From positions 1 through 58,822 of IMG/VR virus record IMGVR_UViG_3300035210_000087: a stretch of DNA of 58,822 nt, one strand, 5' to 3'. Both the position numbers and the translations under genes were made by a program. The DNA is from a virus. Its lineage: Duplodnaviria; Caudoviricetes. Positions within the stretch are counted from its first letter, which is position 1. Every line of letters begins with the position of its first letter. The notes beneath the pieces were generated by a model, which saw only the letters and a program-made list of their open reading frames with translations, was not told where the DNA came from and did not search any database. Below are positions 11,193 to 50,289 of this stretch, piece after piece.

Positions 11193-11542
11193 GGCGGGGG
11201 GAACCCCAGCACCCGCCGGGTTTCCTCGGCCACCGCGAGGTTCATCTCGACGCCCTCTGGCACCGCCCGATAGCCGGGAAACTTGGTCTGGTAGAGCTGG
11301 TCCAGGAGCCACGCCTCAACGCCCATCTGCGTCTGCACCTCGCTCTCGGTGACGATCCCCTTGGCGATCAGCACCCGCATCAGCGCCGAGAGCTCCACCC
11401 GCGTGACAAGCCGGCTTTCTTGCAGGTCGCGCATCGCGGGGACGCCAGGCGCGTGCCGCCCAATCTCGCCGAGGTGCCAGGCGGCCAGCACGCCGCGCCA
11501 CTTGCACAGCGTTTCGACGGCTTCGCGCCAAGGGGGCATCAC
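11189..11542 (-). CDS. hypothetical protein
   Basis: Coupled ORF in the operon. Confidence 0.7.
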   Translation of the reverse strand: MMPPWREAVETLCKWRGVLAAWHLGEIGRHAPGVPAMRDLQESRLVTRVELSALMRVLIAKGIVTESEVQTQMGVEAWLLDQLYQTKFPGYRAVPEGVEMNLAVAEETRRVLGFPPP

Positions 11543-12123
11543 GAGGGCACCCCCTCGCCGCGCATGGTGATCCCGACATCCGCCGTCACGTCGGGAAACT
11601 CGGCCAGCAGCACGCGGACCCGGTCGAGCACGAGCGCCTGCTTCGCCAGGGGGCCGGTGACCGAGATCCAGAAATCATCCTGCACCGGCCCGGTCGCGAC
11701 CTCGCGGATTTCCAGCGTCTCGCCCAGGCCGCCGAACAGCTTGGCCGCCTCGCCCTCGGTGAAGCCGGTGGCGAAGCGGTCCGCCGGCGCCACCTCGCGC
11801 AGCAGCTCGGCCACCATCTCGGCGTCGTCGGTGGACAGGTCGCCCAGCCGGTTGTCGCTGAGCATCACCCGGTCGGCGGTGGCCTGGTCAACGTCCCAGA
11901 TCACCGCCGAAATTTCGGTCCAGCCCAGCCGGGTCGCCGCCTGCACGATGCCGTGGCCGGCGATGATCTGCATGTTCAGCCGGCGGATCAGCACCGGCTT
12001 GTGCTGACCATCCGCCCGCAGGCTCGCCATGAGCCGGTTGATCTGGTCCTCGGAGTGCCGGCGGGGGTTGCGCGGGTTGGCGATCAGCCGGGAGATCGGC
12101 ACGGTTTCCAGGGTGGGTTTCAT
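11539..12123 (-). CDS. ParB/Srx N-terminal domain protein
   Basis: NPRNPRRH..SLRADGQHKPVLI..IIAGHG..DNRL. Confidence 0.85.
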   Translation of the reverse strand: MKPTLETVPISRLIANPRNPRRHSEDQINRLMASLRADGQHKPVLIRRLNMQIIAGHGIVQAATRLGWTEISAVIWDVDQATADRVMLSDNRLGDLSTDDAEMVAELLREVAPADRFATGFTEGEAAKLFGGLGETLEIREVATGPVQDDFWISVTGPLAKQALVLDRVRVLLAEFPDVTADVGITMRGEGVPS

Positions 12124-12398
12124 GCCGCCTGCGCCGCCAGCGCGATCCAGTCGCGGACCTTCTGGTGCGAGCCCCAGGCGTGCGGCGGCAGGTTGTGGTG
12201 CATCCACATGGCCAGCCGGGGCATCTGCTGGCGGAGGTGCTCGTCGGCCAGCACCATCGACCACGTCCAATCGTTCGCCAGGATGGCCGCCAGGGGGTGG
12301 GTCAGCGGCGGCGCCTCGCCGCGGAACAGGTAGGCCCCCATCATGGCGGCGAGCTCGGGGACCGGCATCCCGCCCCACTGGATGTTCTCCACACGCAT
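12120..12398 (-). CDS. hypothetical protein
   Basis: Coupled ORF; AAILAND..AD..WMHHNLPPHAWGS pattern. Confidence 0.7.
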   Translation of the reverse strand: MRVENIQWGGMPVPELAAMMGAYLFRGEAPPLTHPLAAILANDWTWSMVLADEHLRQQMPRLAMWMHHNLPPHAWGSHQKVRDWIALAAQAA

Positions 12399-12682
12399 CA
12401 GGCATGCCCAGCCGGCGGCTTGAGGTCGAGCCGGGCCGCCATCTCGATCCCCATGCTCAGCGTGACGGCGGTGACGTAGGCTCGCTGCGGGTTGCCGCCG
12501 GATACCGCCACGCACGCCCGGTAGGCTGTCTCACCCAGGCAGGCGAGCCATTCGCTGGCGTCGGTGCCGGCTGGGGTGGCGGCGCCGATCGCCCTCCAGA
12601 GCGCCTCCGCGAGCTTGTCGATCGGCTCGCCATCGGACTTTTTCGGCAGCGGCGGCAGGGGCAGTCCGATCACATCCGGCAT
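12398..12682 (-). CDS. hypothetical protein
   Basis: GGGAG RBS; TGATG coupling. Confidence 0.65.
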   Translation of the reverse strand: MPDVIGLPLPPLPKKSDGEPIDKLAEALWRAIGAATPAGTDASEWLACLGETAYRACVAVSGGNPQRAYVTAVTLSMGIEMAARLDLKPPAGHA

Positions 12683-14380: not shown

Positions 14381-14655
14381 GGCCCACCGAGCGCGGCGCA
14401 GGCCACGAACGAGAGCACGAGGGCGGCGGGCGAACGGTCCTCGCGGTGGAGGACCTGAACCGCGCAATCGCGTCGGCCACTGGCGACCAGCGCGCGGCAG
14501 ATCGACACCAGGGGCGCGGGGCCGACGTGGCTTAGCCGGCCGCAGGTGATCCGGTCGCCGTGCAGCAAGGCCACGACCGACCGGATGGGGGAGGCCAGCG
14601 GGACGGTCCCACTGTGGCGGTTGACCCGCCCGGCCAGAAATGTTCCGGGGGTCAT
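14377..14655 (-). CDS. hypothetical protein
   Basis: ATGA coupling on both sides. Confidence 0.6.
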   Translation of the reverse strand: MTPGTFLAGRVNRHSGTVPLASPIRSVVALLHGDRITCGRLSHVGPAPLVSICRALVASGRRDCAVQVLHREDRSPAALVLSFVACAALGGP

Positions 14656-15152
14656 GCAGCTCGGACACGCCGCCCCCGCAGCAGCAGGCAGCCGTAGATC
14701 CAGGTGACCCGGGCGTCCGCTTCGTCATCGCCCAGCCCCGCCCAGCCTTGCCGGGCGCACCATGCGATGACGTGGTCCTTGGCGGTGCCCTTTGGAAATC
14801 GGCCTCTCCCCATGACGCGAGCCCGGATGGTCGTCGAGCTCTCGTCGGCAAACGGAATGCGAAGGCGGAAACAGGTGCTTTCGGCGTGGTACGAGAGTCC
14901 CTGCAGCAGCGAGGCGCTGGTCTGCCTCTTCTCGAAAAGCGGGCGCTCGGCGATCACCCAGCCGGGCTGGTAGGCGGCGCACGCAGCCTCGAGCTCGGAC
15001 ACCAGGGCGCAGAAAGCGCGCCCCAAGTTGTCGAGGCCGGGCAGGTGCCAGACGCCGGATATCGGCTCCCGGTCGTTGATCCCGCCGTAACACCACCCGG
15101 ACGAACGGCTGAGATCGAGCGCCAGGACCCCGCCGGGGCCCGGACCACTCAC
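14652..15152 (-). CDS. RuvC-like Holliday junction resolvase
   Basis: VLALDLS..GW, VIAERP, DDEADA acidic catalytic motifs. Confidence 0.85.
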   Translation of the reverse strand: MSGPGPGGVLALDLSRSSGWCYGGINDREPISGVWHLPGLDNLGRAFCALVSELEAACAAYQPGWVIAERPLFEKRQTSASLLQGLSYHAESTCFRLRIPFADESSTTIRARVMGRGRFPKGTAKDHVIAWCARQGWAGLGDDEADARVTWIYGCLLLRGRRVRAA

Positions 15153-17532: not shown

Positions 17533-18539
17533 CGATCACCTGGGAGCCGGCCCGGCGCGATGGATTTGGCTGCTTTATCGCGTTGGCTGGGGCTTCGCGC
17601 TCCGGCAAGACCTTCAGCGCCTTGGAGCTCGCGACTGGCATTGCCGGGCCGCGCGGCAAGATCGCCTGCGTCGACACCGAAGCCGGTAGAATGAGCCATT
17701 ATGCCACCAGTTTCGCGTTCAGCCGCGCCAACCTGAGACCTCCGTTCTCGCCTGACCGTTTCGCCGAACATGCGTTATCCGCAGAGCAGGCCGGCTTCGC
17801 CGTCCTCGTCATCGACAGCTTCTCGCTCGAATGGGCTGGCGAGGGCGGTGTGCTCGACTGGCACGAACGTGAGCTGCAGAGGTTGGCCCCGAGCGGCAAT
17901 GAGGCCGAGCGCAAGAAGAAAAGCCGCACCGCCTGGATCAAACCCAAGGCGGCGCACAAAGCGATGATGAACAGCCTGCTGCAGCGGAAGATACCGATCA
18001 TCTTTTGCTTGAGGGCCGAAGAAAAATTCGACGACAACTTCCGCCCGTTGGGATGGATACCGCAGCAGGACAAGAGATTTATTTTCGAGTGGACCGTGTC
18101 GCTGACGCTTTCGCCGGCCCGCCCCGGTGAGCCCGATTACGACTTGCCGCACAAGTTGCAGGATCAGCACCGCCCGCTGTTCCCCGAGGGGAAGAAACTC
18201 ACGGCCAGCGCAGGCGCCGCGCTGTGGGCCTGGGCCTGCGGGGATCTGCCGCCGCCAGCGCCCTCCACCGAAGCTGACGAGGCGACACCGCGCCAGGTGC
18301 AGGCCAACGCAGAGGACCGCGCCGTGTTGTTCGTCGCCGAACTCAAGGACGCGATTGCCAAGGCCGGGACCAGGCCGGCGCTCAACGCCCTGCTCGACCA
18401 GAAAGCCGTGCGCGCCCGGCTCGACCGGCTGGTTGAGGCGCACCCGGACAAGCACCGCGAGGTCATGGCTGCCGTGCAAACCCGCGTCGCTGACATCGCC
18501 GCGGCCGAGATGGGCCAGGAGGAGGAAGCGCCGGCATGA
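17529..18539 (+). CDS. AAA ATPase, Sak4-like recombination protein
   Basis: Walker A GASRSGKT, VDTE, Walker B VLVIDS, EWAGEGG; adjacent to the RecE-like gene. Confidence 0.85.
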   Translation: MTITWEPARRDGFGCFIALAGASRSGKTFSALELATGIAGPRGKIACVDTEAGRMSHYATSFAFSRANLRPPFSPDRFAEHALSAEQAGFAVLVIDSFSLEWAGEGGVLDWHERELQRLAPSGNEAERKKKSRTAWIKPKAAHKAMMNSLLQRKIPIIFCLRAEEKFDDNFRPLGWIPQQDKRFIFEWTVSLTLSPARPGEPDYDLPHKLQDQHRPLFPEGKKLTASAGAALWAWACGDLPPPAPSTEADEATPRQVQANAEDRAVLFVAELKDAIAKAGTRPALNALLDQKAVRARLDRLVEAHPDKHREVMAAVQTRVADIAAAEMGQEEEAPA

Positions 18540-18985
18540 TCGACCTGCTGAACTATACCCGGCTGCGGGAGGACCTGGAGGCGGCGGCCACGCTGGCTGA
18601 CATCCAGGCTGTCCGCGAACGGGCGCGCGTGCTGGCGGCCAACGCTGCCGAACGGCCTGATCGCGCTTCGTGGCGCGATCTGTTCGTCCGCGCCTCATTC
18701 CGGATGGGCGAGATCAGCAACGATCTGCCGAAGGCGCACAGGTTCCACACATCGCGCGCGGGCGACAAGCCGAAGGCCCTTCAGCTCATCGAGGCCAAGG
18801 TCAGCGCAATCACGATCTCCGAATTGGAGCGGCTGGCTGGCCGCACCCCGGCGCGGCGGGCGGCAGCCAAGGCCGTGATGGAGGCCTATCTCGCGGAGGC
18901 CAGGAGGACCGCGGTCATCCCGACGGTATCGAAGCTGCGGCTTGCAGTGGAAAATTCGGCGCTAACGAAAACCCATATACCGTGA
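18536..18985 (+). CDS. hypothetical protein
   Basis: Coupled ORF with GGAGGA RBS. Confidence 0.65.
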   Translation: MIDLLNYTRLREDLEAAATLADIQAVRERARVLAANAAERPDRASWRDLFVRASFRMGEISNDLPKAHRFHTSRAGDKPKALQLIEAKVSAITISELERLAGRTPARRAAAKAVMEAYLAEARRTAVIPTVSKLRLAVENSALTKTHIP

Positions 18986-19026
18986 CATAAGCACTGCGGC
19001 GGAAATTCCGCCGTAGGAGCCACCCG

Positions 19027-19908
19027 ATGGCTGCGAAGAAAAAAGAAGAAGAACCGGCCACGATTGTCGTTGAGCCGCTCGAAATCGGCGAGATGAAGTT
19101 TCACCTCATCGGAAATTCGCCGTTCATTTTCAACACGATGAGCGAGAAGGTAAAAATCTATCTGCTGATCCCGCCGCCCGGCAAGAAGACGGCCGCGGAC
19201 AAGGCGGCCACCCTCAAGCACGACCCGGAGCAGGAGTTTCGGGATAGCGCCTCGCGAAACCTCGGCAACACCTGCGCCACCCGCCTCTGCCACCCGACGC
19301 CCGCCTTCAAGAACGCCATCGCTTCGGCCGCGCTCGACATGCCGGGCGCCGCCAAGACGGAGATCGGCCGCCTGAGTTGGGTGACGGGATACGCCGTCGA
19401 CATCTACGGGATCCCGAAGCTGCTGATGAGCGTCGTGAAGATGAACAACGCGGCCAGGACGCCCGATGTCCGGACGCGGGCAATCCTCATGGAATGGGCT
19501 TGCAGTTTCACGATCCAGTTTGCGAGGCCGAAACTGACGGCTCAAGCAATGACCAACCTCGCTGTCGCGGCCGGCATGATCCGTGGCGTCGGCGATTTTC
19601 GCCAGGAAAAGGGCAAGGGCAGCTTCGGGCGCTTCCAGGTCGTTGGGCCTGACAACCCCGACTACAAGCGGATCATCGCCACCGGCGGCCGGGGAGCGCA
19701 GGACGCCGCCCTTGAAGAGTGCGAGCCGGCTGACGACGAAAGCGAACGGCTGTTGAGCCTCTACAAAATCGAGGCCGCCCGCCTCGGTCGCGAGCCGGTG
19801 CGCCGCCCTCCCCCCGTCGAGAAGATTGCCAAGAAGAACGTCGCCGCCGGCGCTGCCGTCGCCAAGCGCCAGGCCGCCAAGCGCAACGGGACAGGAGCAC
19901 GCAAATGA
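19027..19908 (+). CDS. stand-alone Cas7/RAMP-like RNA-binding protein (candidate VIPR-type effector)
   Basis: RAMP motif order: FHLIGNSPFIFN, HPTPAFKNAIASAA, R-T-R..W, and Gly-rich loop GVGDFRQEKGKGSFGRFQV; AGGAG RBS. Confidence 0.8.
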   Translation: MAAKKKEEEPATIVVEPLEIGEMKFHLIGNSPFIFNTMSEKVKIYLLIPPPGKKTAADKAATLKHDPEQEFRDSASRNLGNTCATRLCHPTPAFKNAIASAALDMPGAAKTEIGRLSWVTGYAVDIYGIPKLLMSVVKMNNAARTPDVRTRAILMEWACSFTIQFARPKLTAQAMTNLAVAAGMIRGVGDFRQEKGKGSFGRFQVVGPDNPDYKRIIATGGRGAQDAALEECEPADDESERLLSLYKIEAARLGREPVRRPPPVEKIAKKNVAAGAAVAKRQAAKRNGTGARK

Positions 19909-20378
19909 GCGCCCGACTGGAGGTGCTTGCCCTCGCCGACAAGCACAAGGGGAAGTTCACCCCCGCCATGCTCGTGGCTGCGGCCAGGAAGCCGACCTCG
20001 GCGCTGCACCGGCGGTTTGAGTGGGACGACACGATTGCCGGGCAGAAATACCGGCTTTACCAGGCGCGGCTGATTATCAACGTGGTCGTCATGCCGTCGA
20101 TCGCCGGCAAGACCACTGTTGCGATCCCGGTTTTCGTGAGGAACCCGGAGATGGCATACAACGTGCAGGGATATGTTGCGGTCGAGCAACTTGCTGCCAA
20201 CCCGGAATCCGCGATGGAGAGCGTCAACGCTGAGTTCTCGCGGGTGCTGCAGGCGTTGACGCGGGCGCGGCATTTGGCTGTGGCGCTCGGCTTCGCCAGG
20301 GACATTGACCGGCTGATGGAAGATGTGCGCAAGCTCGCGGGCCGGATCCCGTCGCCCCCTAAACGCAAGGCGGCGTGA
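19905..20378 (+). CDS. accessory protein coupled to the RAMP-like gene
   Basis: ATGA overlap; TPAMLVAAARKPTSALHRRFEWDDTIAGQKYRLYQARLII phage motif. Confidence 0.8.
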   Translation: MSARLEVLALADKHKGKFTPAMLVAAARKPTSALHRRFEWDDTIAGQKYRLYQARLIINVVVMPSIAGKTTVAIPVFVRNPEMAYNVQGYVAVEQLAANPESAMESVNAEFSRVLQALTRARHLAVALGFARDIDRLMEDVRKLAGRIPSPPKRKAA

Positions 20379-20385
20379 GCCGGTA

Positions 20386-20951
20386 GGATGTCACGGAACG
20401 GCGAGGCTGGGTGCGGCTAGGCGGGGCGGGGCATGGCCCGGCTCGGCCGTCAAAGCAAGGCTGGGCATGGCGGGGCTAGGCGCGGCATGGATCGGCGCGG
20501 CCGTCTCGGCTTGGCACGGCTCGGCTAGGCCCGGCAGGGCGAGGCACGGCTTGCCCAGGCAGTCGTGGCGGAGCCCGGATTGGCCCGGCCCGGCCCGGCT
20601 CGGCACGCCACGGCGCGGCTCGGCCGTCTTGGCAAGGCATGGCTCGGCGCGGCGCGGCGGGGCATGGCGCGGCCGTCTACACCCGGCCAACAATGGACCG
20701 GAGAGGCATGGTGCGGCGCGGCCCGGTAGGGCCGTCCACATCGGGGCAGGCAGCACGAGCCTGCCCTTCGTGCCGAAAGACCAACGGATGTCACGGAGAG
20801 GCAGTCTTGGCTTGGCTAGGCACGGCCCGGTCGGGCCAGGTTCGGCAGGGCCGTCCAGGATCGGCTAGGCATGGCAAGGCCGGGCTTGGCTCGGCAGTCC
20901 AGGCAAGGCGGGGCGCCAAGGTGCCGGTGGGGAGCGATCCTCGCCGGCACC
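20386..20951 (+). ncRNA. GGY-NN pentamer array segmented by GGC(C/A)GTC; candidate guide-RNA array
   Basis: 5-nt periodic GGC/GGT/GGA plus variable dinucleotide; delimiters at 20386, 20445, 20499, 20558, 20622, 20671, 20730, 20786, 20800, 20849, 20893; closing GNRA hairpin 20920-20951. Confidence 0.8.
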
Positions 20952-21036
20952 GACCCCTATACGGGATACCCGCAATCAGGGTCTTGCCAAACTGTCATCA
21001 ATCAAGGCAGCGTAACGGGCCGGCATGGGGCCGGCA

Positions 21037-21070
21037 AAAGAAAGGGCCGGACCCCGAAGGACCCGGCCCT
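21037..21070 (-). terminator. rho-independent terminator
   Basis: Minus strand AGGGCCGGGTCC-TTCG-GGGTCCGGCCCT followed by TTCTTTT. Confidence 0.7.
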
Positions 21071-21280
21071 AACCTTTAGATGGAGGAGAAGCGAAACCGA
21101 GAAGCACCTCGGCACACCCGCAACGCAACCACCTTTGATGCAGCGCCTTTGCAGGGCGCGGGATCACCTAAGGAGTGACCCCAGCATCATAGAGAAATCG
21201 GCTGCCGTCAAGCTGCATCGTTGCAGCTTACGCGGGTGTGCGCGCCTCTCGGTTTCGCCTCTCCCCGATCGGGAGATGAG

Positions 21281-21916
21281 ATGCACATTTCGCCGCCCCC
21301 GAAGCACCGCGCCGGCGCCACAAGTGAGGCCCCGCCGCCCGTAGATTTCAGCCCGGCCGAGATGCATCTGTGGCGGTGCCGCGCCTGGGAGGCCTTCCGC
21401 ATCGGCGCCATCAACGGGGATCACTACGCCCTGATCTTGGCTCTGTCGGGGGGCATGGCCCTCGGGCTCCCTTACTTCCCCAGCCTCGCCAACATCGCCG
21501 AGATGGTCGGCCGCTCAAGAACCACCGTGCGCAAGTGGTTGGGGCGGCTGCAGAAGGTCGGGCTGCTGATCATCATCCCCCGGAAGGTCCTGGTGCCGTG
21601 GCTGGGCAGCCGCCGGGGCGGCATGCAGGGGGTGCAGACCACCAACGCCTATCTGCCGCGCCTACCGGAGCCGGATGAAGTTTTCGAGCCGCGCCGCCGC
21701 AACTGTGAGGCCGTCCAGCGGCCAGGACTCAAGGGTAGTTCTATTAAGAAGAAAGAAGAGGGAAATCAGCCTGTTGACAACTCGCGGTCGCAACAACTGT
21801 CCCTGGAGTGGGCGGGATCGCTGGCGCCATGGGAGAGGCGGGCGGCCTTGGATGCCAGAACCGCCTCGGTAGAGGCAAGGCTGGCAGCGGAATATGCCAG
21901 GAGGCGGGTGTTCTGA
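21281..21916 (+). CDS. second winged-HTH replication-type protein (plasmid RepA-like)
   Basis: FPSLANIAEMVGRSRTTVRKWLGRLQKVGLL and QTTNAY motif; start uncertain. Confidence 0.65.
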   Translation: MHISPPPKHRAGATSEAPPPVDFSPAEMHLWRCRAWEAFRIGAINGDHYALILALSGGMALGLPYFPSLANIAEMVGRSRTTVRKWLGRLQKVGLLIIIPRKVLVPWLGSRRGGMQGVQTTNAYLPRLPEPDEVFEPRRRNCEAVQRPGLKGSSIKKKEEGNQPVDNSRSQQLSLEWAGSLAPWERRAALDARTASVEARLAAEYARRRVF

Positions 21917-28259: not shown

Positions 28260-29834
28260 TTATCCCCAAGCGTAGATGGTGGTCTGGTTGTTGGCGAAGT
28301 CTTCGATCATGCCGATGACCAGCAGGAACTTGCCGGCCAGGCCAAAGCGGTCAGTGGCGATCGAGATGGTGGTGCCCAGGTCCACCGCGGAGGCGAGCTC
28401 TGGCGGAACGACAATGGTAACCAACAGGCGCCGGGCTCCGTAGAGATTTATCAAACGCGAGGCCTCGGTGTTGGAGAACAAGGCCGTCATCAGACAGGTG
28501 TTGAACTCCATTGGCTGCGACGTTGGATTGCGCCCGGTGCTGGTTGCTGGATCCCATATCGCTGGCATCGACCAAACGGTGTAGCGGTATTCGTTGGCGA
28601 GATAGTCTTTGCGGGCCGCGGTGACGGCGCCAGCAACGTTCGCCCCGGAAAGCGTCAGGAAGGTGCGCGCGTAGCCCAGCTTGACCTGATAGGTCGGAAT
28701 GCCGCGCGACTGATCCGCCGTCGGCTGCAGCACGATGACCGAGCCCGACGTGTTCAGGAGTTGCTGCTCGGTAAAGGTGACGACGGCTGGCCCGGTCGGC
28801 ACAACCAGCATGGTGAGGTTGAATTTGCCAAGCCGGTTTGGCGTCCAGCTTGCCCCGACGCTGCCCAATACGAGGTCGAGGACATCGCCCACCTTGGCGC
28901 CCGCGCCGGCCGCAACGAAGTGCCCGCACCCGCCATCGGCTGACAGGTTGAGCGCCGCCACCCCGAGGATGTCACCGGAGGACACGCCAGCGCGCTGCAG
29001 GACGGCATTCGCGATGTCGGCGGCCTTCGCCGCTGACAGGTTGGCCGAGGCCGTGATGGGCAAAGACGGACTTGAGCCGAGGCGGATGTAGCACCCCTCT
29101 GCCCCCGACCCGAGCGAGTAGTCGTAGGTCGCCGCGGCAGGCGCCGTTGCTTCGAGCGCCGCGGCATTGGCCCGCGAGGTCCCGACCGGGATGGCGTTGC
29201 CGCCCTCCCACACGCCGCCGATCGCAGCCACGGGGTCGGCGCTCAGGTGGTAGATCAGCTTGGAGCTGTTGACGCGCGTGGGCTCGAAGCCCGCCGGGGA
29301 GCCAAGCACCAGGGGCATCGTCTGCCCCTTGATGTCGTCGATCGTGCCGTCGATGCCGGCCGGCAGCACGTTGGTGCCGCCGTAGCGTGTGGTCACCAGC
29401 AGCTTGTCGGCCACCTCGGACCGCCTGTCGCGGATGCGCGCGGTGACGGTGCTCTCGGTGACATCGAGCTGGTCCAGCGTGCCCACGAGGACGGTGGTGA
29501 AGCTGGCGCGGGCGGCGCGCTGGTCGCCGCGCAGGATGGTGATCGCCCGGCCGTCGAAGTCGTAGTTCAGGAGGTAGTCCAGGCCGCCGTCGAGGTTGGC
29601 GAGCTCCACCACGCCGGCATTGACGCTGCCGGCCCCTCGCGTGGCGCCGGCCGCCCACATATGCCGCTCGTAGGAACCCGGGGAGATGACGCGCGGATAG
29701 TAGATCGTGTTGGCGGGCGTCTCGGCCGGCTTGGTGACGTAGCCCACGCCCGTGCAGTAGCGCAGCGTCTCAAGCGCCCCGCCGGCGCTGACCGGCTGCA
29801 GGCCCACGATCTCGATAAGGTAGATGGTGCTCAT
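28260..29834 (-). CDS. tail tip/hub protein
   Basis: Follows the tape measure; GVVELANLDGGLD, DIKGQTMPLVLG. Confidence 0.7.
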   Translation of the reverse strand: MSTIYLIEIVGLQPVSAGGALETLRYCTGVGYVTKPAETPANTIYYPRVISPGSYERHMWAAGATRGAGSVNAGVVELANLDGGLDYLLNYDFDGRAITILRGDQRAARASFTTVLVGTLDQLDVTESTVTARIRDRRSEVADKLLVTTRYGGTNVLPAGIDGTIDDIKGQTMPLVLGSPAGFEPTRVNSSKLIYHLSADPVAAIGGVWEGGNAIPVGTSRANAAALEATAPAAATYDYSLGSGAEGCYIRLGSSPSLPITASANLSAAKAADIANAVLQRAGVSSGDILGVAALNLSADGGCGHFVAAGAGAKVGDVLDLVLGSVGASWTPNRLGKFNLTMLVVPTGPAVVTFTEQQLLNTSGSVIVLQPTADQSRGIPTYQVKLGYARTFLTLSGANVAGAVTAARKDYLANEYRYTVWSMPAIWDPATSTGRNPTSQPMEFNTCLMTALFSNTEASRLINLYGARRLLVTIVVPPELASAVDLGTTISIATDRFGLAGKFLLVIGMIEDFANNQTTIYAWG

Positions 29835-32800
29835 CGGGCTGCCAGCCGCTTGGCGGAGCCGGCCGCTTGCTGGGCCACCGTGGTGTTCTCCTGCACCGCC
29901 TGCACGGTCGCGATGTGCCCCTGGGCCGCCACCTGCGTGGCCGCCGCCTGTGCCCTGCGCAGCGCCGCGAGCTCCGCGCGCACGGCGCGCAGCTCAACCA
30001 CCACGGCCTGGTTGTCGTTGGCGCGGTAGCTGCCCGCATTCATTCCCGGCAGCACGTCGGCATAACGGGCAGCCTGGGATGCGTTGACCACATACTCGCC
30101 GCCGGCCAAGCCGATGGTGCCGCCGCCGGCATAGGCCGCGATGACGCTGTCCTTGTTCCAGACGCCGTTGCCGACCCAGCCGCCGGCCGCCATCCCGTGC
30201 GTGGACTTGTATTCGGCCGTGCTCTGGATCCCGCGCAGGACCTCGCCGGATGAGGCGCCGCTCTGCATCATGGCGACCCAGAAGGCCAGGCCTTCCGCAT
30301 CCGGGGCCCGGCCCAGCGCGCTCCGGTAGATCGCCGTCACGGTCGTTGTGGCGCGGGACTTGTACTCGTCGGTGCCGGCCATGGCCCGTTCGAGGGTCGA
30401 GAGGGTGACGCCGCCGGTCGCAAGCTGGCCCTGCCAGTAGGTCAGGCCGGCAGCATCCGGGGCGCGGCCGAACATCTCCTGGTAGGCCTGGGTGACGGAG
30501 GAAACAGGCTGCGGGCCAACAAGCTGCGCTGCCGTTGCGGCCTGCGCCGTGCCGCTGACATCGGAGGCCAGGGCAGTGGCGCCGGTGGCGCGCTGGTCGG
30601 CCGCCAGCTTGGCCGCGTAGGTGCTGTCGGTCAGCGCCTTGAGCGCATCGAGCGTGGCCGGCGCGACGGCGCCCATCGCCTGCACGGCCGCCAACTGCGC
30701 CTTCAGCACGGTGAGCTGCTCGCCGAGCAACTTGACCTGCTGCTCTTGCGGGCTGGCGGTGTCGACCATCGCCGCGGACGCTGCCGTGAGGGCTTTCTGC
30801 ACGGCCTCAAACTCGGCCGCGTAGCCGGGGCCAGCCTTGCCGTAATAGCTCTCGGCCAGCGTCAGCCGGGTGGTGGCGTCGGTCTGAAGCTGGGAGGCGG
30901 CAGCCGTGCGCTTGGCGGCATCCACGGAAGTGTCGCTGGCCGTGGCAGCCGATGCGGCCATGGCGGTGCGGGCCGCCGCGAGCTTCTGCTCTGGGGTCAA
31001 CGGCGAGGCGGCGGACGTGAACAGGCCGGCGGCGAACTTGGTCAGCGCCTCGGCTGCCGTGCGGAGGCTGGTCGCCAGGGTGGTGGCCGAGGAGGCTGCG
31101 GTTTCGTTGGCAGAGATCGCGCTGTTGAGGGCCGTCTCGTAGGCCGACCGCGCCGTGGTGTAGGCGTTGTTGGCTGCCTCGGCCGCCTGGACCGCCATGA
31201 GGGCGTCGATCTGCACGGCCGTTTGCCAGGAGGAAAGGCCGAGCTCCTTCAACGCCGATGTCGCGGTGACGATCTGATCCCTGAAGGTCGCCGCATCCGA
31301 GGACGAGGTGACCAGGCCGGAATTGCCGGTGACGGTGGCGAGCCGGCCGGTGAGGGCATCGGTCCAGTCGTTGAGCCCCTGCGCCTGCTTGGCGGCGAAG
31401 TCCCTGATGATCTTCTGCCGCTCGGCCACCTGCGTCCGGGTGAGCTGCGCCACCAGGTCGGCATATTCCGCCGTGGTCGCGTAGGCGCTGCCGAACGCCG
31501 TGGTCAGGGTGCCCATGAACGACAGCATTTCGGTCTTGGCGCTGGCGGCGGCGGTGGCCAGGGACGTGACCAGACTGCTGGGGGCGTTGTCGTTCGCCAC
31601 GTTGACGCGCGCTGCCATGGACGCGCGCTCAGTGGCCACCGTTGCGGCCGCCGCGTCGTTGAGCGCCTTGATGCTCGCCGCTCGCTTGGTGTTCAGCACG
31701 TCTTCCGACAGGCCGTATTTGACGGCCGAAACTGTGGCCGCGTCGAAGCTCGTGTTGACGCTGTTGATCGACGTTTGCAGCGTGCCGATGCTGTCGACCG
31801 TGACGCCAGTGAGCTTGTCGAAGTCGGCGGCGGCTTGAACCCCTGCGGCCAGATCATCCCATGTCGTGAAGGTGTTGTTGGCGAGGACCTGCTTCAGCGC
31901 CGCGCTGCCGGTTGCGGAGCTGAACGTGAACGCCTTGGCGGTATCCTGGAAGCTGGACTGCTCGCCGGCCACGCCGGTGTTGTTGCCGCCGACGATTGAG
32001 GTTCCTGACGCGACGATGGCGTGCTCGGTCAGGTAGGCGTTGACCTTCGCCATGGCGGACATATCCGCCGTCCACTGCTCCTTCGCGACGTTGTTGTAGT
32101 GCTCGTCCGACGTGACGAGCTGGCCGCTCTCGTTGGCGCTGACGTGGTAGCCCCATCCGTTGTGCGCGGCTCCCGGCCCGAAGAAGGAGCCAGCAATGCC
32201 GCCGATGAGGCCGCCGATCGCTGAGCCGATGGGCCCGAACACCATGCCGATGGTGGCCCCGGCCGCGGCGCCCACCATCGCCTGGTCGTTGTGGCCCGGG
32301 TTGATGGCGCTCCCGGCCAGCGTGCCGGCGCCGAAGCCGATGCCCCATCCCGCCACATAGGTGCCGACGGTGCCGGCGATGCCAGAAAGCGAGCCGGAGG
32401 ACATCTCCGCTGTCGTGCCAGCCATCTCCGCCGCCGGGACCTCACCGGCCACGAACGCCGCCTGGCTGGACGACAGGCCAGTGCCGAGGTTGGTGACGCC
32501 CCATTGGTCGATCGAATTGACCACGCTGCCCCAATCGACGCCCATCAGCTTCGACCCGCTGGAGGCGGCGCTGAGCAGTGACGAGCCGTTGCTGAGCAAA
32601 GAGCTGCCCGTTGAGCTCGTCTTGGCCCCGCTGCTGGATGTTCCGGAGCCGCTGACCAGCGTGTTGTTCGTCGTGTTGATGATCGCGGAGCCGTTGGTCA
32701 GGCTGGTGCCGCTGTTGGTGATGAGGTCGCCGCCGATCGACGTGGTCGGCTTGTCCTCCGCCGTTGACGCCAGGCCGAGCGCGCCGAGGATCGACGTGCC

Positions 32801-35800
32801 CCACGATGTCGGGCTGAGATCGACGTTGCCACCAATCTTTTCCGCCACCCCCGACAGCGTCGTGAGCTTCTGGCCGTCCATCGCGTTCAACAGCGGATTG
32901 AGGATCGAGATTTTCAGCGCCCATTCGCCGAGCTGCGTGCCGATCCCCTGCAACACGGTCTTGAAGTTGACGCCGGCCGCAGAGCCTTTCACGAAGGCGT
33001 CGGTGATGCTCGATCCCACCGTGGTGAAGATGGAGGTCATCTCGCTGGCGATGTCGGCGCTGACCTGCGTTTCCTTGGCGAGCTTCTGCTGTGCCGCCGT
33101 CTGGCGCACCGCCGCGTCAATGGACTGCTGGGCCACCTCCGGGCTGAGCTTCTGCAGCGTCTTCTTGGCCTCGATCTCGGCCTTGAGCGCGGTAAGCACC
33201 AGGGCGCGCTTGTCGGCATCCATGCCGAGGGTGGTGATCTCGGCCTCGATGTATTGGGTGCCGAGGTTGGTGTTGAGGGTGGCGCGCTGCGTGGTCTCGT
33301 TGGCGAGCGCCGCGCTCTGCTTGTCGAGCTTCGCCGTCAGCGCCGTGACCTTGGTCTCGTACTCGGCGGACCCTTCCTTGGTGGTCTTGCGGGCCTCTTC
33401 CTCGGCCTTGATCCGGTGCGTCAGGGTGACGGTCTCGGCACCGCCGGCCGCCAGCGAGGCGGTCAGCCGGTCATTGCCGGCCGTCGCCCGGTCCATCGCG
33501 TCCATCTGGTCGCGAAAGCCAGCATCGAGCTCCTTCAGGCGCAGGACCCGGCCGCGGTCAAGCTGCTCCTGGCTGGCGCCGGTGAGGCCCATTGCCTTGG
33601 CGGCTTCGTTGAGCTGCTGGTCGGTCTTGGCGAGCTCGCGGGTGGCGCCGCTGGCAACATCAGCGCTGGACGCCTGTTGCTCCATCGAGTGCAGGAGGGT
33701 TTCGACGGGATCGCGGCTGGCGTAGAGCGCGCCCTTCGTCGCCTGCAGCCCGCGGTTGATGGCGGTGTTGGCCTTGACGCCTTCCTCGCCCATCGTCTGC
33801 CACAGCGCGACGCCCGAAGGCGTGATCTTGTCCAACTCGGCCCGCGCCGCCTGGAACATCTTGAGGTTGCGCTCAAGGCCTTCGTGCGTCTCGTCGAACA
33901 CATGGAGCCCGGCGTAGAGCTTCTGGGCATCTTGGATGAGGCCCTTGGCGTCGGAGCTCGTGGCGCTTGGCGCCGGCGGCTGGTCGTAGACAGCGCCGGT
34001 GGGCGCGGTCGCGGTTGCCGTGGTCGTGGTTACCGGGCCGGATTCTCTGCGGGCAGTGCGATCCCAATGGCTGCCGCCGCTCTCCTTCAGCGCGATCCTG
34101 AGCGCGAAGTCGATCTGCTTGGGGTTGGCGCCCTGCGCCGTGGCCTCGGCGATGATGTCCTGCCGGGCGATCTCGGGCACGTCGCCGGCCCGGCGCGAGG
34201 CCACGTCCTGCGCATAGTAGGAGGCGTCCACCTTCCTCTTGGTGGAGGTTCGGCCGGCCTTGATGTTTTCGAGACCCAGGTCGCCCTGGAAGTAGGCCTG
34301 CGCGACATCGGCCTCGATGCCGTTCCACCTCTCCCACGCCTGGAGGATGCGCTTGATGCCGCCCTTGATGTTCTGCGTGTAGTCGGAGGAATTGACGCCA
34401 AGGTCGCTGGCAGTGCCATCGAGAAGCTGGAACATGCCGGTCGCTGTGGAATCGGGGTTCTTCAGCACCGGGAAGTTGCTGACGGTGTAGTTGGTGTCGC
34501 CGCGCGACGTGACCGGGCCGGATGTGCCGGTGGGGATGTGGATCGGGATGTTGGGGGCAGGCCCGGAAAACAGCCGCTCCATGCGGCCGGCGTCCTGATC
34601 CGACAGCTTGATCTGTGCGCGGACCGCCTCGATCCGGTTGACCAGGCGCTCAAGCCTGTCGACGACAAAGGTCAGCCCGACCACCATCGCCCCGCCGACC
34701 GCCTCAAGGATCGGCCCAAGCTGCTGCTTCAGCTTCTCGAACGACTTGCTGAGCTTGTCGAGCGCCTCGCCGGCGTCGTTCACGGGCTTGGAGGCGCCGC
34801 CAACGGCCGCCGTGAGGGCTGCGATCAGCTTGGCCGTGGCGGCGGACTTGTCGCCACCGGCCTGGATGTCGGCGATGTATTTTGCCAAGCCGTAGCCGAC
34901 AGCCTTCAGCCCTTCGTCGGCGAGCTTCTTGGCCTCTGTACCAGGGTCGCGGAAGGCCAGCGCCAATTCCTTGGCGGCTTCGGGGGCGGTCTTGCCCATG
35001 ACTTTGGCAAGGTCGGTGGCGAGCTGCAGCAGCACGTCCATGTTCGCCCGGGCTGTCGCAAACTCCGGCGTCGAGCCAATGATCTCGGCCGCCGACTTGG
35101 CATCCTTCCGGTTAAGGCCGGAGATGGACGCCGCCGCCCTCTTGGCGGAGGCCTCGATGTCGTGGGCAAGGGTGACGTAGTCGTCGTGGGTGCCGCGGAG
35201 GTGCTGCGCCAGTTCGTTCAGCTTGGAGATGTGGCTTTCGTGCGCCACGATGGCGGCAACGCTCATCCCGACCAAGGCCGCGGTGGCGGTTATCGCCGCG
35301 TAGCGCAGGCTGAAGATGGCTTCGATGATGCTGCCGACACGCTTTGCCACGCCCGCCATCGTGTCGAAAAGGTTCTGGTTCATCTCAGCCAGCACCATCA
35401 GCGAGCCGGGGATGCGGCTGTAGGTGCCGATGAGGGCTTCGTGCGAGATGACGATGAATTCGCGGATGGCGTTGGAATTGACGGCCGTGCCGTTGGCGGC
35501 TGAATGCGAGTGGCTGATCTGCTCGGTGGTCGCCCGCTTGTAGGCGGCCTCGACCTGCTGCAGATCCACGATCATCTGCTCGTCGGAGATGTGCCGCTCT
35601 TTGTTGGCGGCAACGATGTCGGCGGTTTGCTTGATCCGGGTCTGCTCGGCGGCAAAGACGTGGTCGATCGACGACTTGGTGCTGGTGTAGGACGAAATCA
35701 TTTTGGCGTTGGCGTTCGCCACATCGACCGCCGCCGCGGCGGCCTCACGCTCAGCTTTGGCCGTGTCCGAGACGGCGTTGTAGACCTCCATGTAGCGGAC

Positions 35801-37171
35801 GTAGGCGGCGGCAAGCGTTGCGTTGGCCTGGGCGCGCTGGCTCTCGTCGGCAGCCACGGCGGTCGTGGCCGCGACCACGGCGCGCTCGTAGGCCACAATA
35901 GCGGCATAGATCGGGTCAACACCGGCACGGGCAGCCGCCAGATTGGCCGTGTTCGCCGCTACGGCCGCGCTGTTCAGCCGCAGCGCTTCGGTGGCCAAGC
36001 TCTCGGCGTTCGCCATGGTCTCGGTCGAGCGCACCACCTGGGCATGGTTGGCGCGGAGCTGCGCCATGATCGCAGCCGCAGCTTCCTTGCTGCGCGTGCC
36101 GGCATCGACGGCAGCGGCAAGCTCGATCTCGGCGGCGGCAAGTTGCTGCTCGGAACGGAACACCGGATCAATGGAGGCGTGCCAGGCATCGAACCGGGCT
36201 GAAATGGCCGCCACACCGGCAGCCTGCTTGGCTGCGGCGGCAGCATTCTGCTCCATGGCCGCGGTGACGAAGGTCAGCGATGACAGCGTGGCATCGAGGA
36301 CGGACTTCGCCATCGCAATGGCGCGGTTGGTGTCGTCCTGGGTGATGCCGGCGTGGCCGGTCGCTGCGGTGGCGATCCGCACGGCATCGTTATAGGTGTT
36401 CCAGGCGGCAGCCGCGGGATCGAGGCTGCCTTGCAGGCTGCGGAAGCTGGACACGATCGCCGCGGACTTGGCGGCGTTGCGCTCGACCTCGGCGGTGTTG
36501 CGGCGCAGCGCCTCGGCGGTGCCGTCGAGCTCGGCAACCGTCTCGGCGTAGGCAGCGCGGACCTTGGCGACTACGGGCGCCACGCCGGCCCAGGTGGTGA
36601 TGTTGTTGTTGACAGCGGCCGTGCAGACCGCCAACCGCTCGTTCTGGGTGGCGAGCGCGCCCTCCAACGGAAACATTTCATTGCGCAGAGAGGCGTAGGA
36701 CTGCCCGGCCTTCGCGACCGTGGCGGCCTGCTGCTGCTGGCTGCGCTCCGCCTTGCCCAGTGCCGCGTTGAAGCCGGAAAGCTCGAGAATGGTGCTGCGG
36801 TAGATTTGGAGCGAGAGCTCCTTGACGGCGTTGGCGGCGACCTCCGAGACCTTGAGCCGTTCGACGGCCGTGTCGCAGATGTCGAGCGCACGCTGGTAGT
36901 TCGCCAGGGCGCCATAGACGGGGTCGAGCCGTTCCTTCAGCCCCTCGTAGGAGAGCGCAGCCCGCTGCACTGCGGCCGCGTTGGCGGCGGCGCCTTTCTC
37001 GGCGATCCCCTGCTTCTCCGTGACCGCGACGAACGCCGCTGCCACCCTGCCGATCGCGCTCTCCAGCGTCGCCATGTCGGAGGCGCCGCCGGCGGCAATT
37101 GCCTGCAACGCCGCCTTGAAGGTCTCGGCCTCGCGCAGCGTCAGCCGGATCGAAAGCGTGCCACCAGCCAT
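29831..37171 (-). CDS. tail tape measure protein with lytic-transglycosylase-like segment and two DUF4214-like repeats
   Basis: 2446-aa Ala-rich helical ORF after the tail chaperones; ATGMFQLL and IALKESGG; FGRAPDAAGLTYW / LGRAPDAEGLAFW. Confidence 0.9.
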   Translation of the reverse strand: MAGGTLSIRLTLREAETFKAALQAIAAGGASDMATLESAIGRVAAAFVAVTEKQGIAEKGAAANAAAVQRAALSYEGLKERLDPVYGALANYQRALDICDTAVERLKVSEVAANAVKELSLQIYRSTILELSGFNAALGKAERSQQQQAATVAKAGQSYASLRNEMFPLEGALATQNERLAVCTAAVNNNITTWAGVAPVVAKVRAAYAETVAELDGTAEALRRNTAEVERNAAKSAAIVSSFRSLQGSLDPAAAAWNTYNDAVRIATAATGHAGITQDDTNRAIAMAKSVLDATLSSLTFVTAAMEQNAAAAAKQAAGVAAISARFDAWHASIDPVFRSEQQLAAAEIELAAAVDAGTRSKEAAAAIMAQLRANHAQVVRSTETMANAESLATEALRLNSAAVAANTANLAAARAGVDPIYAAIVAYERAVVAATTAVAADESQRAQANATLAAAYVRYMEVYNAVSDTAKAEREAAAAAVDVANANAKMISSYTSTKSSIDHVFAAEQTRIKQTADIVAANKERHISDEQMIVDLQQVEAAYKRATTEQISHSHSAANGTAVNSNAIREFIVISHEALIGTYSRIPGSLMVLAEMNQNLFDTMAGVAKRVGSIIEAIFSLRYAAITATAALVGMSVAAIVAHESHISKLNELAQHLRGTHDDYVTLAHDIEASAKRAAASISGLNRKDAKSAAEIIGSTPEFATARANMDVLLQLATDLAKVMGKTAPEAAKELALAFRDPGTEAKKLADEGLKAVGYGLAKYIADIQAGGDKSAATAKLIAALTAAVGGASKPVNDAGEALDKLSKSFEKLKQQLGPILEAVGGAMVVGLTFVVDRLERLVNRIEAVRAQIKLSDQDAGRMERLFSGPAPNIPIHIPTGTSGPVTSRGDTNYTVSNFPVLKNPDSTATGMFQLLDGTASDLGVNSSDYTQNIKGGIKRILQAWERWNGIEADVAQAYFQGDLGLENIKAGRTSTKRKVDASYYAQDVASRRAGDVPEIARQDIIAEATAQGANPKQIDFALRIALKESGGSHWDRTARRESGPVTTTTATATAPTGAVYDQPPAPSATSSDAKGLIQDAQKLYAGLHVFDETHEGLERNLKMFQAARAELDKITPSGVALWQTMGEEGVKANTAINRGLQATKGALYASRDPVETLLHSMEQQASSADVASGATRELAKTDQQLNEAAKAMGLTGASQEQLDRGRVLRLKELDAGFRDQMDAMDRATAGNDRLTASLAAGGAETVTLTHRIKAEEEARKTTKEGSAEYETKVTALTAKLDKQSAALANETTQRATLNTNLGTQYIEAEITTLGMDADKRALVLTALKAEIEAKKTLQKLSPEVAQQSIDAAVRQTAAQQKLAKETQVSADIASEMTSIFTTVGSSITDAFVKGSAAGVNFKTVLQGIGTQLGEWALKISILNPLLNAMDGQKLTTLSGVAEKIGGNVDLSPTSWGTSILGALGLASTAEDKPTTSIGGDLITNSGTSLTNGSAIINTTNNTLVSGSGTSSSGAKTSSTGSSLLSNGSSLLSAASSGSKLMGVDWGSVVNSIDQWGVTNLGTGLSSSQAAFVAGEVPAAEMAGTTAEMSSGSLSGIAGTVGTYVAGWGIGFGAGTLAGSAINPGHNDQAMVGAAAGATIGMVFGPIGSAIGGLIGGIAGSFFGPGAAHNGWGYHVSANESGQLVTSDEHYNNVAKEQWTADMSAMAKVNAYLTEHAIVASGTSIVGGNNTGVAGEQSSFQDTAKAFTFSSATGSAALKQVLANNTFTTWDDLAAGVQAAADFDKLTGVTVDSIGTLQTSINSVNTSFDAATVSAVKYGLSEDVLNTKRAASIKALNDAAAATVATERASMAARVNVANDNAPSSLVTSLATAAASAKTEMLSFMGTLTTAFGSAYATTAEYADLVAQLTRTQVAERQKIIRDFAAKQAQGLNDWTDALTGRLATVTGNSGLVTSSSDAATFRDQIVTATSALKELGLSSWQTAVQIDALMAVQAAEAANNAYTTARSAYETALNSAISANETAASSATTLATSLRTAAEALTKFAAGLFTSAASPLTPEQKLAAARTAMAASAATASDTSVDAAKRTAAASQLQTDATTRLTLAESYYGKAGPGYAAEFEAVQKALTAASAAMVDTASPQEQQVKLLGEQLTVLKAQLAAVQAMGAVAPATLDALKALTDSTYAAKLAADQRATGATALASDVSGTAQAATAAQLVGPQPVSSVTQAYQEMFGRAPDAAGLTYWQGQLATGGVTLSTLERAMAGTDEYKSRATTTVTAIYRSALGRAPDAEGLAFWVAMMQSGASSGEVLRGIQSTAEYKSTHGMAAGGWVGNGVWNKDSVIAAYAGGGTIGLAGGEYVVNASQAARYADVLPGMNAGSYRANDNQAVVVELRAVRAELAALRRAQAAATQVAAQGHIATVQAVQENTTVAQQAAGSAKRLAAR

Positions 37172-47706: not shown

Positions 47707-47930
47707 GCAGTCAGCTCCACGAAAGTTAGGGAGCGGGCTGGACGGCGGCCACCCTCGGCCTTATCGGACCCGATACATCAAGGCCATTGCTGGCACTCGA
47801 CTTGCCGATATTGGGGGCATTTGATGTGAAACGCGAATTTTAAGCTGTATCTCGGGTTGCACCGGGCGTCTGCCACCCTCATTGGTTCCGACGCCGTAGG
47901 GTCCCCTGGCGCCGTCACATCTCACTGAGA

Positions 47931-48400
47931 TGTTATCGCGATCGCGAAACCACGTTTCTGTTATCGCGAAAAGAGAATAACGTTTAAGTCATCGCGATTG
48001 CAGAACCACGTTTATGTCATCGCGCGCAAGCAACCACGTTTATGTCATCGCGCAAAGCGAACAACGTTTTAGTTATCGCCGATTAGGAATGACGTTTGTG
48101 TTATGGCGTTTAAGGAATGACGTTTAAGAGATGGCGCATTGGGAATAACGTTTAAGAGATGGCGCATTAGGAATGACGTTTAAGAGATCGCGAAACAGGA
48201 ACAACGTTTCTGTTATCGCGAGTAAGGAATGACGTTTAAGAGATCGCGCATTGGGAATGACGTTTAAGAGATGGCGTTTAAGGAATGACGTTTAGGTTAT
48301 AGCGCCAACGTAACCACGTTTAAGTTATCCCTACTAAGGAACAACGTTTAGGTTATCGCGCTATCGAGATGACGTTTTAGTGCTCGCGCCATCGGAATAA
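47931..48400. repeat. 28-bp-period degenerate tandem array, 16 units
   Basis: ACGTTT core every 28 nt from 47952 to 48372; consensus about N6-GAAYVACGTTTNNGWBATSGCG. Confidence 0.92.
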
Positions 48401-48853
48401 CTGGTAACTGTCATGTATCACTTGAGCGAATGACAGCAATGCAAGAATATCATTAGGTCATATACTTTACTCTTCCGGGAAGTATGCAAATACCAAGGGC
48501 TTGAAATTGCTCACTTGATTACATGGTTACTCTAGTTCGTTTCGCTTTCCGTATGCCTCTAGAAAGGCCAGGGATGGGCCACTAGAGGCTTGCAGTGATT
48601 TCAGGTATCGCACTAGCGGGGTGGTAGGTTGCAAGCCGCTGGCGACATTTTCCACTTACGGAAAATAGGGCTTATTCTGTATAGTTGCTTATACGCACGG
48701 CACGTTTATTGCTGTCGTGCCATGGTATGTTTGCGGAGTATTATGGTATGTTTCTACTAGGTAACAGCAATTTGTATAACACGTTTTTCCCATACGCGGA
48801 TATGAGAGCACTACTGCAAAGGCAATGTTGCCTTGCAGAAAGGAGAAACCACC

Positions 48854-49257: not shown

Positions 49258-49289
49258 AGGGCCACCCGCAAGGGTGGCCCTTTCTCTTT
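49258..49289 (+). terminator. rho-independent terminator
   Basis: AGGGCCACCC-GCAA-GGGTGGCCCT then TTCTCTTT. Confidence 0.88.
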
Positions 49290-49292
49290 GTA

Positions 49293-49530
49293 CCCTGGCC
49301 CCTGGCCCCTGGCCCCTGGCCCCTGGCCCCTGGCCCCTGGCCCCTGGCCCCTAGCCCCTAGCCCCTGGCCCTGGCCCCTGGCCCCTAGCCCCTGGCCCCT
49401 AGCCCCTGGCCCCTAGCCCCTGGCCCTGGCCCCTAGCCCCCGGCCCCTAGCCCCTGGCCCTGGCCCCTGGCCCCTAGCCCCTGGCCCCTAGCCCCGGCCC
49501 CCTGGCCTTGGCCCCGGCCCCGGCCCCGGC
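49293..49530. repeat. 7-mer tandem repeat (CCCCTGG/CCCCTAG family), about 34 units
   Basis: Directly visible; G-run strand is minus. Confidence 0.92.
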
Positions 49531-49540
49531 AATCCATGCC

Positions 49541-50213: not shown

Positions 50214-50289
50214 TGCGTGTAGCTCCTGCAAGTAATGACGTGACGTATGCGTAGTCGGCGGCCGAACGAACTAGATTTTTTTCATCAAC

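Follow-up and report, generated by a model that had tools for sequence, protein, structure and literature searches.

A probable VIPR system with a compact staggered array in a tailed phage from peat soil

VIPR systems and the locus of the peat-soil phage

VIPR systems (short for Viral Interference Programmable Repeat) are a very recent addition to the RNA-guided systems, and only the type found in Escherichia phage SUSP1 and P. fulva has been dissected. They were described in a bioRxiv preprint (10.64898/2026.04.26.720920). A VIPR system comprises a minimal RAMP protein (Vipr), an accessory vap gene, and guide RNAs (vrRNAs) made of 9–16 YNNGG repeats and a 3′ tail. The NN dinucleotides pair with double-stranded DNA, with one base skipped per unit, and competing phages and satellites are transcriptionally silenced. 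Seven types and six vap families were distinguished, with "staggered arrays with overlapping vrRNAs" among the forms (10.64898/2026.04.26.720920). The structural basis was given in a further preprint, in which SUSP1 Vipr was solved bound to GGY-NN repeat RNA: one protomer occupies each 5-nt unit, grips GGY and presents NN, so that the target is gapped (10.64898/2026.04.26.720927). A biological test of VIPR (10.64898/2026.10.15.759431) and the recovery of 99 VIPR-like array clusters (10.64898/2026.10.21.760802) have followed. Here we describe a locus, beginning at position 19,027, in IMG/VR record IMGVR_UViG_3300035210_000087, a single 58,822-bp virus record of a tailed phage from peat soil; this whole stretch is called the window.

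A first-pass annotation, made from the sequence letters, had proposed a phage RNA-guided system here, consisting of a Cas7/RAMP-like gene, an accessory gene and a GGY-NN array, and had likened it to VIPR. VIPR systems are described in print, and the way of working that the annotation proposed, with one subunit per 5-nt module gripping GGY and presenting NN to a gapped target, is that of the published structural work. VIPR is an already known kind of system, because it was described in the 2026 preprints. Every sequence-level feature of VIPR that could be checked was found at the locus, and we consider it very probable that the locus is a VIPR system of a tailed phage.

The vipr gene (19027..19908, plus strand) encodes a 293-aa minimal RAMP (Cas7-like) protein, as judged from a fold model, structure matches and a profile match. 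The open reading frame (ORF) holds the RAMP/Cas7 motifs LIGNSPFIFN, PTPAFKNAI and GVGDFRQEKGKGSFGRF, as first noticed, and has a gene-like codon composition (GC content at codon positions 1/2/3, GC1/2/3, of 0.61/0.47/0.81). The AlphaFold2 model (predicted local distance difference test score, pLDDT, 87.7; predicted TM-score, pTM, 0.77) has an RRM core with beta1 at residues 19–29, alpha1 at 91–101 and alpha2 at 172–186. To this core are added a helical bundle or insert at ~40–74, a long beta-hairpin thumb at 123–167, a Gly-rich loop at 187–199, and a clade-specific C-terminal helical extension at 210–252 followed by a basic tail. A Foldseek search of the PDB with the model gave 35 matches at E ≤ 1e-3, and those printed were all CRISPR-Cas entries, mainly Csm3 or type VII Cas7. 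In a VIA-align comparison with 48,161 chains, CRISPR RAMPs filled ranks 1–25, aligned over model residues ~16–209. The motifs, the model and both structure searches agree on the RAMP fold that the first-pass annotation had expected. No family in Pfam, NCBIfam or PADLOC matched Vipr, and its only family match was phrog_4652, whose function is not known.

The link to VIPR at the level of sequence comes from SUSP1. A single-sequence search of the PDB returned only the SUSP1 Vipr protein (36pp_D, E 0.094), and a profile of 38 homologs run against 177,635 PDB sequences returned the same chain at E 2.5e-4, with the runner-up at E 1.4. The SUSP1 vipr gene was located by profile as gp039 of NC_028808. 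Vipr and gp039 were aligned by hhalign over 51 columns (probability 94.3%, E 1e-7), a stretch corresponding to the last strand-helix-G-loop-strand of the RRM. R151, D190, F191 and R192 align opposite SUSP1 R138, D177, W178 and R179, which are contacts to G1, G2 and Y3 (10.64898/2026.04.26.720927). R151 and R192 are invariant in the 38 homologs, and D190 is present in at least 90% of them. SUSP1 H17 and K33 could not be aligned to Vipr.

The vap-like gene (19905..20378, plus strand, 157 aa) is coupled to vipr, as had been noted, by an ATGA overlap at 19905–19908, in which the TGA of vipr (19906–19908) overlaps the ATG of the next gene (19905–19907). Both ORFs are intact and gene-like in codon composition, and a vap homolog comes after vipr in 81 of 123 related loci. 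Vap carries, in its N-terminal part, the conserved motif LH..FEWDD..A....R..QAR, and is helical in its C-terminal region. It matches phrog_15946, whose function is not known, has no match in Pfam, the PDB profile search, NCBIfam or PADLOC, and in the ESM Atlas falls with viral hypothetical clusters only. Comparison with SUSP1 vap1 gave a BLASTP E of 0.5 and an hhalign probability of 0.1%, and in sequence the two are unrelated. Prediction of a Vipr–Vap complex scored 0.00 and gives no verdict. The absence of other cas genes and of a repeat-spacer CRISPR array, stated in the first-pass annotation, was borne out in the window: none of the 54 ORFs matched a PADLOC Cas model, and no such array was found.

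The GGY-NN array, its relatives and guide turnover

An array of GGYNN units follows the two genes on the same strand (20400–20916, plus), and a first GGY unit (GGTAG) begins 4 nt past the vap stop. The clean span of ~517 nt holds 74 clean units, against about 2 by chance, of which 69 have C and 5 have T as Y; ten exact runs reach at least 3 units, and the longest has 10. The ~570 nt first assigned to the array holds if the header and the 3′ hairpin are included; the clean array is shorter. Runs of at least 4 comprise 70 units when the two strands of the window are counted together; in 100 first-order Markov simulations such units averaged 1.9 with 12 as the highest count, and the longest run had 4 units. 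The autocorrelation of G at lag 5 is 0.43 in the array and ~0 in the vipr gene. The array is non-coding, as had been supposed: an ORF across it (20323–20868, 181 aa) was rejected as a gene on its flat GC1/2/3 (0.69/0.75/0.76), and period-3 power is 0.1 in the array versus 13.6 and 19.9 in the two genes.

The units are grouped in modules of 6–12 units. The first sub-array (20400..20734, plus strand) has six modules, at 20400–20449, 20459–20503, 20508–20562, 20567–20626, 20631–20675 and 20685–20734. At the end of each comes GGC[C/A]G, then TC and a further 2 or 7 nt, and therefore the register of the next module shifts by one base. The second sub-array (20809..20916, plus strand) has modules at 20809–20853 (9 units), 20863–20897 (7) and 20902–20916 (3). 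Some units are degenerate, for instance in modules 20567–20626 and 20685–20734. Modules are mostly joined by a 4–9-nt link with no tail, and stable structures occur only after the two sub-arrays.

Three further elements frame the sub-arrays. The array header (20379..20399, plus strand) contains a 12-nt motif, GGATGTCACGGA, at 20386–20397, which recurs at 20786–20797, so that it stands before each of the two sub-arrays. The second copy lies in a structured internal spacer (20735..20808, plus strand) together with a hairpin at 20744–20766 and a GGCAG-TCTT junction; the RNA fold of 20730–20812 has −37.9 kcal/mol (z −2.77). A structured 3′ region (20917..21042, plus strand) contains a 10-bp hairpin at 20920–20951 and further stems, and the RNA fold of 20898–21040 has −71.7 kcal/mol (z −4.35), a stability that none of 200 shuffles reached. 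This region may form a tail, either for the last vrRNA or for the transcript as a whole. It is followed by a GC-rich, terminator-like 12-bp hairpin (21043..21070), called on the minus strand by the scan, which could also end the plus-strand array transcript. An Rfam search of 18900–21400 found no ribozyme or known RNA, only sub-threshold small-RNA matches at the terminator.

A word-based search for Vipr homologs yielded 3,576 candidates and 824 homologs at E ≤ 1e-3, one of them 98% identical and all others at most 59%. With the 38-homolog profile, the number of cluster representatives matched was 3,538 at E ≤ 1e-3, falling to 1,854 when the threshold was set at E ≤ 1e-10 and to 423 at E ≤ 1e-30. 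The set of 123 related loci was composed of 43 from genomes (43 of 86 pattern matches confirmed) and the best 80 from IMG/VR, where at least 459 relatives were confirmed among 599 matches examined. The locus thereby documents a large, mostly uncultured clade. tblastn re-found vipr in 122 of the 123 loci, missing L042.

The first-pass annotation had suggested a search for homologs with adjacent GGY-NN tracts, and these were abundant. At least one run of four or more exact GGYNN units lies on the vipr strand within −1.5/+2.5 kb of the gene in 104 of the 122 loci. Runs lie downstream of vipr in 100 loci and upstream of it in 15, and 2 loci have one on the opposite strand. Near the gene, the vipr strand has 7.35 units/kb, compared with 0.075 on the opposite strand and 0.045 further off. 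No run was found in 18 loci, several of which are short or cut contigs and in which degenerate repeats were not searched.

The register shift seen in the window recurs across the clade. The gaps between runs were 4 mod 5 in 359 of 618 cases and 0 mod 5 in 164, the latter representing degenerate in-phase units. Among 120 four-nt junctions, the most common were GGCAG|GC (39), GGCGG|TC (32), GGCTG|GC (10), GGCAG|TC (7) and GGCCG|TC (5). Each of the 15 junction types listed, together 114 of the 120 junctions, has a last unit with a terminal G, which doubles as the first G of the next register and gives a 1-nt register overlap.

A sister phage, L044, is represented by a 48,283-bp IMG/VR record, whose completeness CheckV puts at 91%. 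Its synteny with the window, at ~90%, is broken at the gene that immediately precedes vipr; the two vipr genes have 97% identity in DNA and 98% in protein, and Vap is 91% identical. Header, spacer and 3′ region are common to the two arrays, as are two modules and one short module; the other slots carry different guides in L044, which has more modules than the window. The header is conserved with two changes, the spacer is identical up to 20807, its final base differing, and the 3′ region is near-identical, with one stem pair changed from G-C to G-U. In the first sub-array, modules 20631–20675 and 20685–20734 are identical and the rest is replaced; modules 20809–20853 and 20863–20897 have different guides in L044, with GGY retained. 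In three modules that occupy equivalent positions, the two phages differ at 41 of the 52 NN sites and at 7 of the 78 GGY sites (Fisher p 1.5e-16). Together with the sequence link to SUSP1 Vipr and the GGY-contact residues, this hypervariability of NN supports the membership in VIPR that the first-pass annotation could not verify.

As a separate observation, L044 has a 188-nt insertion between vipr and vap (4880–5067 of L044) encoding a 62-aa mini-ORF that resembles the N-terminal motif of Vap.

The L044-like allele was also found in the peat metagenome runs X2, X4 and X5, in a tally that excludes run X1, which may be the source sample. The joint is the same in each, with 179 nt replaced by 71 others, and run X2 has in addition contigs identical to the window across the array, so that both alleles are present in X2. 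Two co-circulating alleles with different clean modules indicate, at the level of sequence, active diversification. We offer more tentatively, and as a rather doubtful extension, that the array is a rapidly reprogrammed guide store, swapped as whole cassettes, in which the staggered junction (GGCNG then T/G-C) would be both the processing site and the recombination point. If true, guide exchange at junctions would be the VIPR counterpart of CRISPR adaptation; no guide-exchange mechanism of such a kind was met in the available parts of the VIPR preprints.

These observations bear on whether the pentamer tract acts as RNA at all. It might instead act at the DNA level, as a G-rich structure, an iteron-like protein-binding repeat or a recombination site, with the RAMP-like protein binding some other RNA. 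GG every 5 nt could form two-tetrad G-quadruplexes, the phage has other large tandem-repeat regions at 47.9–50.4 kb, and an RNA product of the tract is presumed by analogy. Such a role does not account for the strict adherence of the units to the strand of vipr (3,221 units there versus 33 on the other strand in the 122 loci), nor for the turnover of NN while GGY stays fixed, and the related SUSP1 protein was solved with RNA of this kind (10.64898/2026.04.26.720927). We regard action at the DNA level as very unlikely.

Readout, targets and genomic setting

By analogy with SUSP1, the VIPR system of the window would work as follows. vipr, vap and the array would be transcribed together, and cutting or partitioning at the staggered GGCNG/TC junctions would divide the array into about nine guide RNAs, each of 6–12 units. 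Vipr protomers would polymerise one per unit, with thumb R151 and G-loop D190/F191/R192 holding GGY and NN exposed. The filament would pair with double-stranded DNA matching NNxNNx..., with one skipped base per unit, and transcription of competing phage, prophage or satellite genes would be blocked. Vap may assist Vipr in an unspecified way. Silencing is expected, not cutting, because no nuclease is present; neither protein matched a nuclease or other family, which fits the preference for silencing over cleavage in the first-pass annotation.

Targets were sought as NN matches with a 1-nt skip per unit, and the scans of the large collections took perfect matches only, where the authors who discovered VIPR used a criterion of at least 80% NN match (10.64898/2026.04.26.720920). 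All 8- and 9-unit guide windows from 124 loci gave 0 exact matches against all loci, as did the shuffles.

Several results weigh against the assignment or parts of it. Neither the genome of the phage itself nor 890 kb of related loci contained a target above the level given by shuffled guides. Exact scans of IMG/VR with modules 20400, 20809, 20508 and 20631 gave 0, 1, 0 and 0 matches, and two long L044 modules gave 0 and 0. In two metagenome scans, module 20400 gave 0 matches, and module 20508 gave 3 loci, representing 2 independent sequences, which is about the chance level. The blank is weak evidence, because the scans needed perfect matches and the host was not identified. On the protein side, the TM-scores of the Foldseek matches are low (0.30–0.37 by query), and the VIA-align Z of the 25 top ranks (8.8–6.6) has to be read with the caveat that a Z near 8 alone can be a common arrangement, so the fold evidence is weighted by the uniformity of that list and not by Z alone. 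The sequence link to SUSP1 Vipr is confined to the C-terminal 51 columns, with the N-terminal two thirds unaligned. No sigma-70-like promoter was found upstream of vipr, and a check of six peat metagenome runs turned up no RNA data set. Transcription and junction processing of the array in this clade are presumed by analogy, and DNA rather than RNA targeting, with the skip length, would follow from the distant SUSP1 type only.

The few matches were rejected as targets. The sole IMG/VR match (L124), within a holin-like gene of a phage with low GC content, is probably due to chance. Of the two sequences matched by module 20508, one is non-coding, with 45% GC, and the other is part of a gene for a PhyH-like dioxygenase, where the skips fall on wobble positions.

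The same results raise the question of whether a VIPR-type ribonucleoprotein is present that reads its targets differently, either on RNA or on DNA with another skip length or with a register set by the staggered modules. The skip rule is established for type II only (10.64898/2026.04.26.720920), no credible DNA target was found under it in the collection or local scans, and the top fold matches are RNA-targeting backbone subunits of types III and VII (Csm3 and Cmr4 targeting RNA). However, DNA-binding Cas7 proteins of type IV and type I were also matched by VIA-align (8rc3_A, Z 7.7; 7sba_A, Z 7.4), the GGY-contact residues are conserved, and the blank of perfect-match scans weighs little. A different readout is thus improbable, though the least so of the alternatives considered here.

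The lack of targets, together with the degenerate units in modules 20567–20626 and 20685–20734, would also be expected of an inactive remnant, whose genes and array are carried along after function has been lost. Against this stand the two intact ORFs with gene-like codon composition, the conserved key residues and the two co-circulating alleles with different clean modules, and we give loss of function the least credence of all. A VIPR system reading double-stranded DNA is the reading that we prefer.

The phage has genes for a large terminase, portal, protease, major head protein, tail fibre and endolysin, and its nearest cultured terminase, 46% identical, is from Roseobacter phages. Also encoded are a ParB-like protein, a RecE-like exonuclease, an AAA_24 ATPase and a replication-initiator-like helix-turn-helix (HTH) protein, and the vipr locus lies in the early/replication region. 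Just 5′ of vipr (18998..19019, plus strand), a small hairpin with a 5-bp GC stem stands before a putative ribosome-binding site, GGAG. The element is identical in L044 though the upstream gene is replaced, and identity to the sister phage resumes here. That upstream gene (18536–18985, 149 aa, no family match) is swapped for unrelated sequence in the otherwise syntenic sister phage, marking a variable gene slot.

Other observations in the window concern repeats and one long gene. Two arrays of 28-nt tandem repeats (47930–48405 and 49531–49754; 15 and 6 copies, 60–81% alike) sit in a ~3-kb non-coding region adjoining the terminase gene; they have an iteron- or centromere-like look, and the phage encodes its ParB-like protein at 11542–12405. 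At 49266–49546, a heptamer, reading CCCCTGG/CCCCTAG on the plus strand, is repeated in tandem ~38 times. The sister record G001 stops exactly at the start of this region, probably at an assembly break, and a period-7 array cluster with no known role is mentioned in 10.64898/2026.10.21.760802. A purine-rich tract at 50331–50430 (minus strand) has GGCNN alternating with GGGAA units and GGCAG-GGAA junctions, and aligns with G001's VIPR array at 71% (E 2.4e-4). It occupies the divergent intergenic region between a Cro-like HTH gene (49917–50231, minus) and a plus-strand ORF from ~50478, and may represent either a solo vrRNA-like element that has degenerated or an operator region. Five consecutive GGYNN units at 14728–14752 (minus) lie within a RuvC-like resolvase gene (14655–15152, minus) and are probably a coding coincidence. 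In the tail module, a 2,446-aa ORF (29831–37171, minus) had no PHROG match at E ≤ 1e-5.

Comparison with known systems

The type II system of SUSP1 consists of Vipr gp039 (PDB 36pp), vap1 gp038 and four vrRNAs. Like it, the window locus is a phage-borne two-gene operon of a minimal RAMP and an accessory gene, with same-strand GGY-NN repeats in flanking non-coding DNA, a conserved G-loop GVGD[F/W]R and thumb arginine, and neither cas genes nor a nuclease. As far as sequence can tell, it differs from type II in the accessory gene, the array architecture and the protein extension. The window Vipr has 293 aa, versus ~200, with an extra C-terminal helical domain and similarity over only 51 columns, and the accessory gene is unrelated to vap1. 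The vrRNAs of SUSP1 are separate, each with an AT-rich leader and a ~35-nt tail, whereas the modules of the window abut through 4–9-nt links, with only two structured spacers. Neither vap1 nor separate vrRNAs with pseudoknot tails, the features of type II, were found at the window locus.

In the "staggered" VIPR arrays, vrRNAs are produced from positions overlapping by 1 nt, the end of one marking the start of the next (fig. S18 legend, 10.64898/2026.04.26.720920). The window and its relatives show the same 1-nt register overlap, a likeness drawn from this legend; a difference is that the unit after the junction reads GTC in the window, not GGC. The window array is probably the published staggered form.

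With the Cas7 proteins of class 1 CRISPR systems (Csm3, Cmr4, type VII Cas7 and type IV Csf2), which are the best structural matches, Vipr shares the RRM core, the thumb hairpin and the Gly-rich loop. The fold alone is in common: there is no sequence-family match, no CRISPR array and no other cas gene, so that sequence match, array and partner cas genes, by which a CRISPR-Cas Cas7 is recognised, are all lacking at the window locus. The step is 5 nt here versus 6 nt in Cas7, and the guide is made of repeats, not of a spacer.

Among cultured phages, a tblastn search of 50,697 phage records found relatives in four Gordonia phages only (five records, 26–28% identity). In Gordonia phage UmaThurman (NC_031249), gp39 matches the Vipr profile (hhalign probability 99.5%, E 1.9e-22) and gp41 the Vap profile (99.2%, E 5.6e-20), and a staggered GGY-NN array with GGCAG junctions lies between them, beside integrase, repressor and excise genes. 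The gene order is vipr-array-vap, unlike the vipr-vap-array of the window, and gp39, with 207 aa and 27.7% identity to the window Vipr, has no C-terminal extension. Both proteins are annotated as hypothetical. The array itself is annotated as a coding sequence, gp40 (2583–2906 of locus L131, NC_031249 33362–33685), which is probably a mis-annotation; GGY-NN arrays are thus being annotated as protein-coding genes.

Set beside the described systems, the clade adds a different accessory protein and a compact staggered array to VIPR, and shows natural guide turnover between near-identical phages. UmaThurman, as a cultured and unannotated example, offers a test bed for processing, the skip rule and the role of the Vap family.

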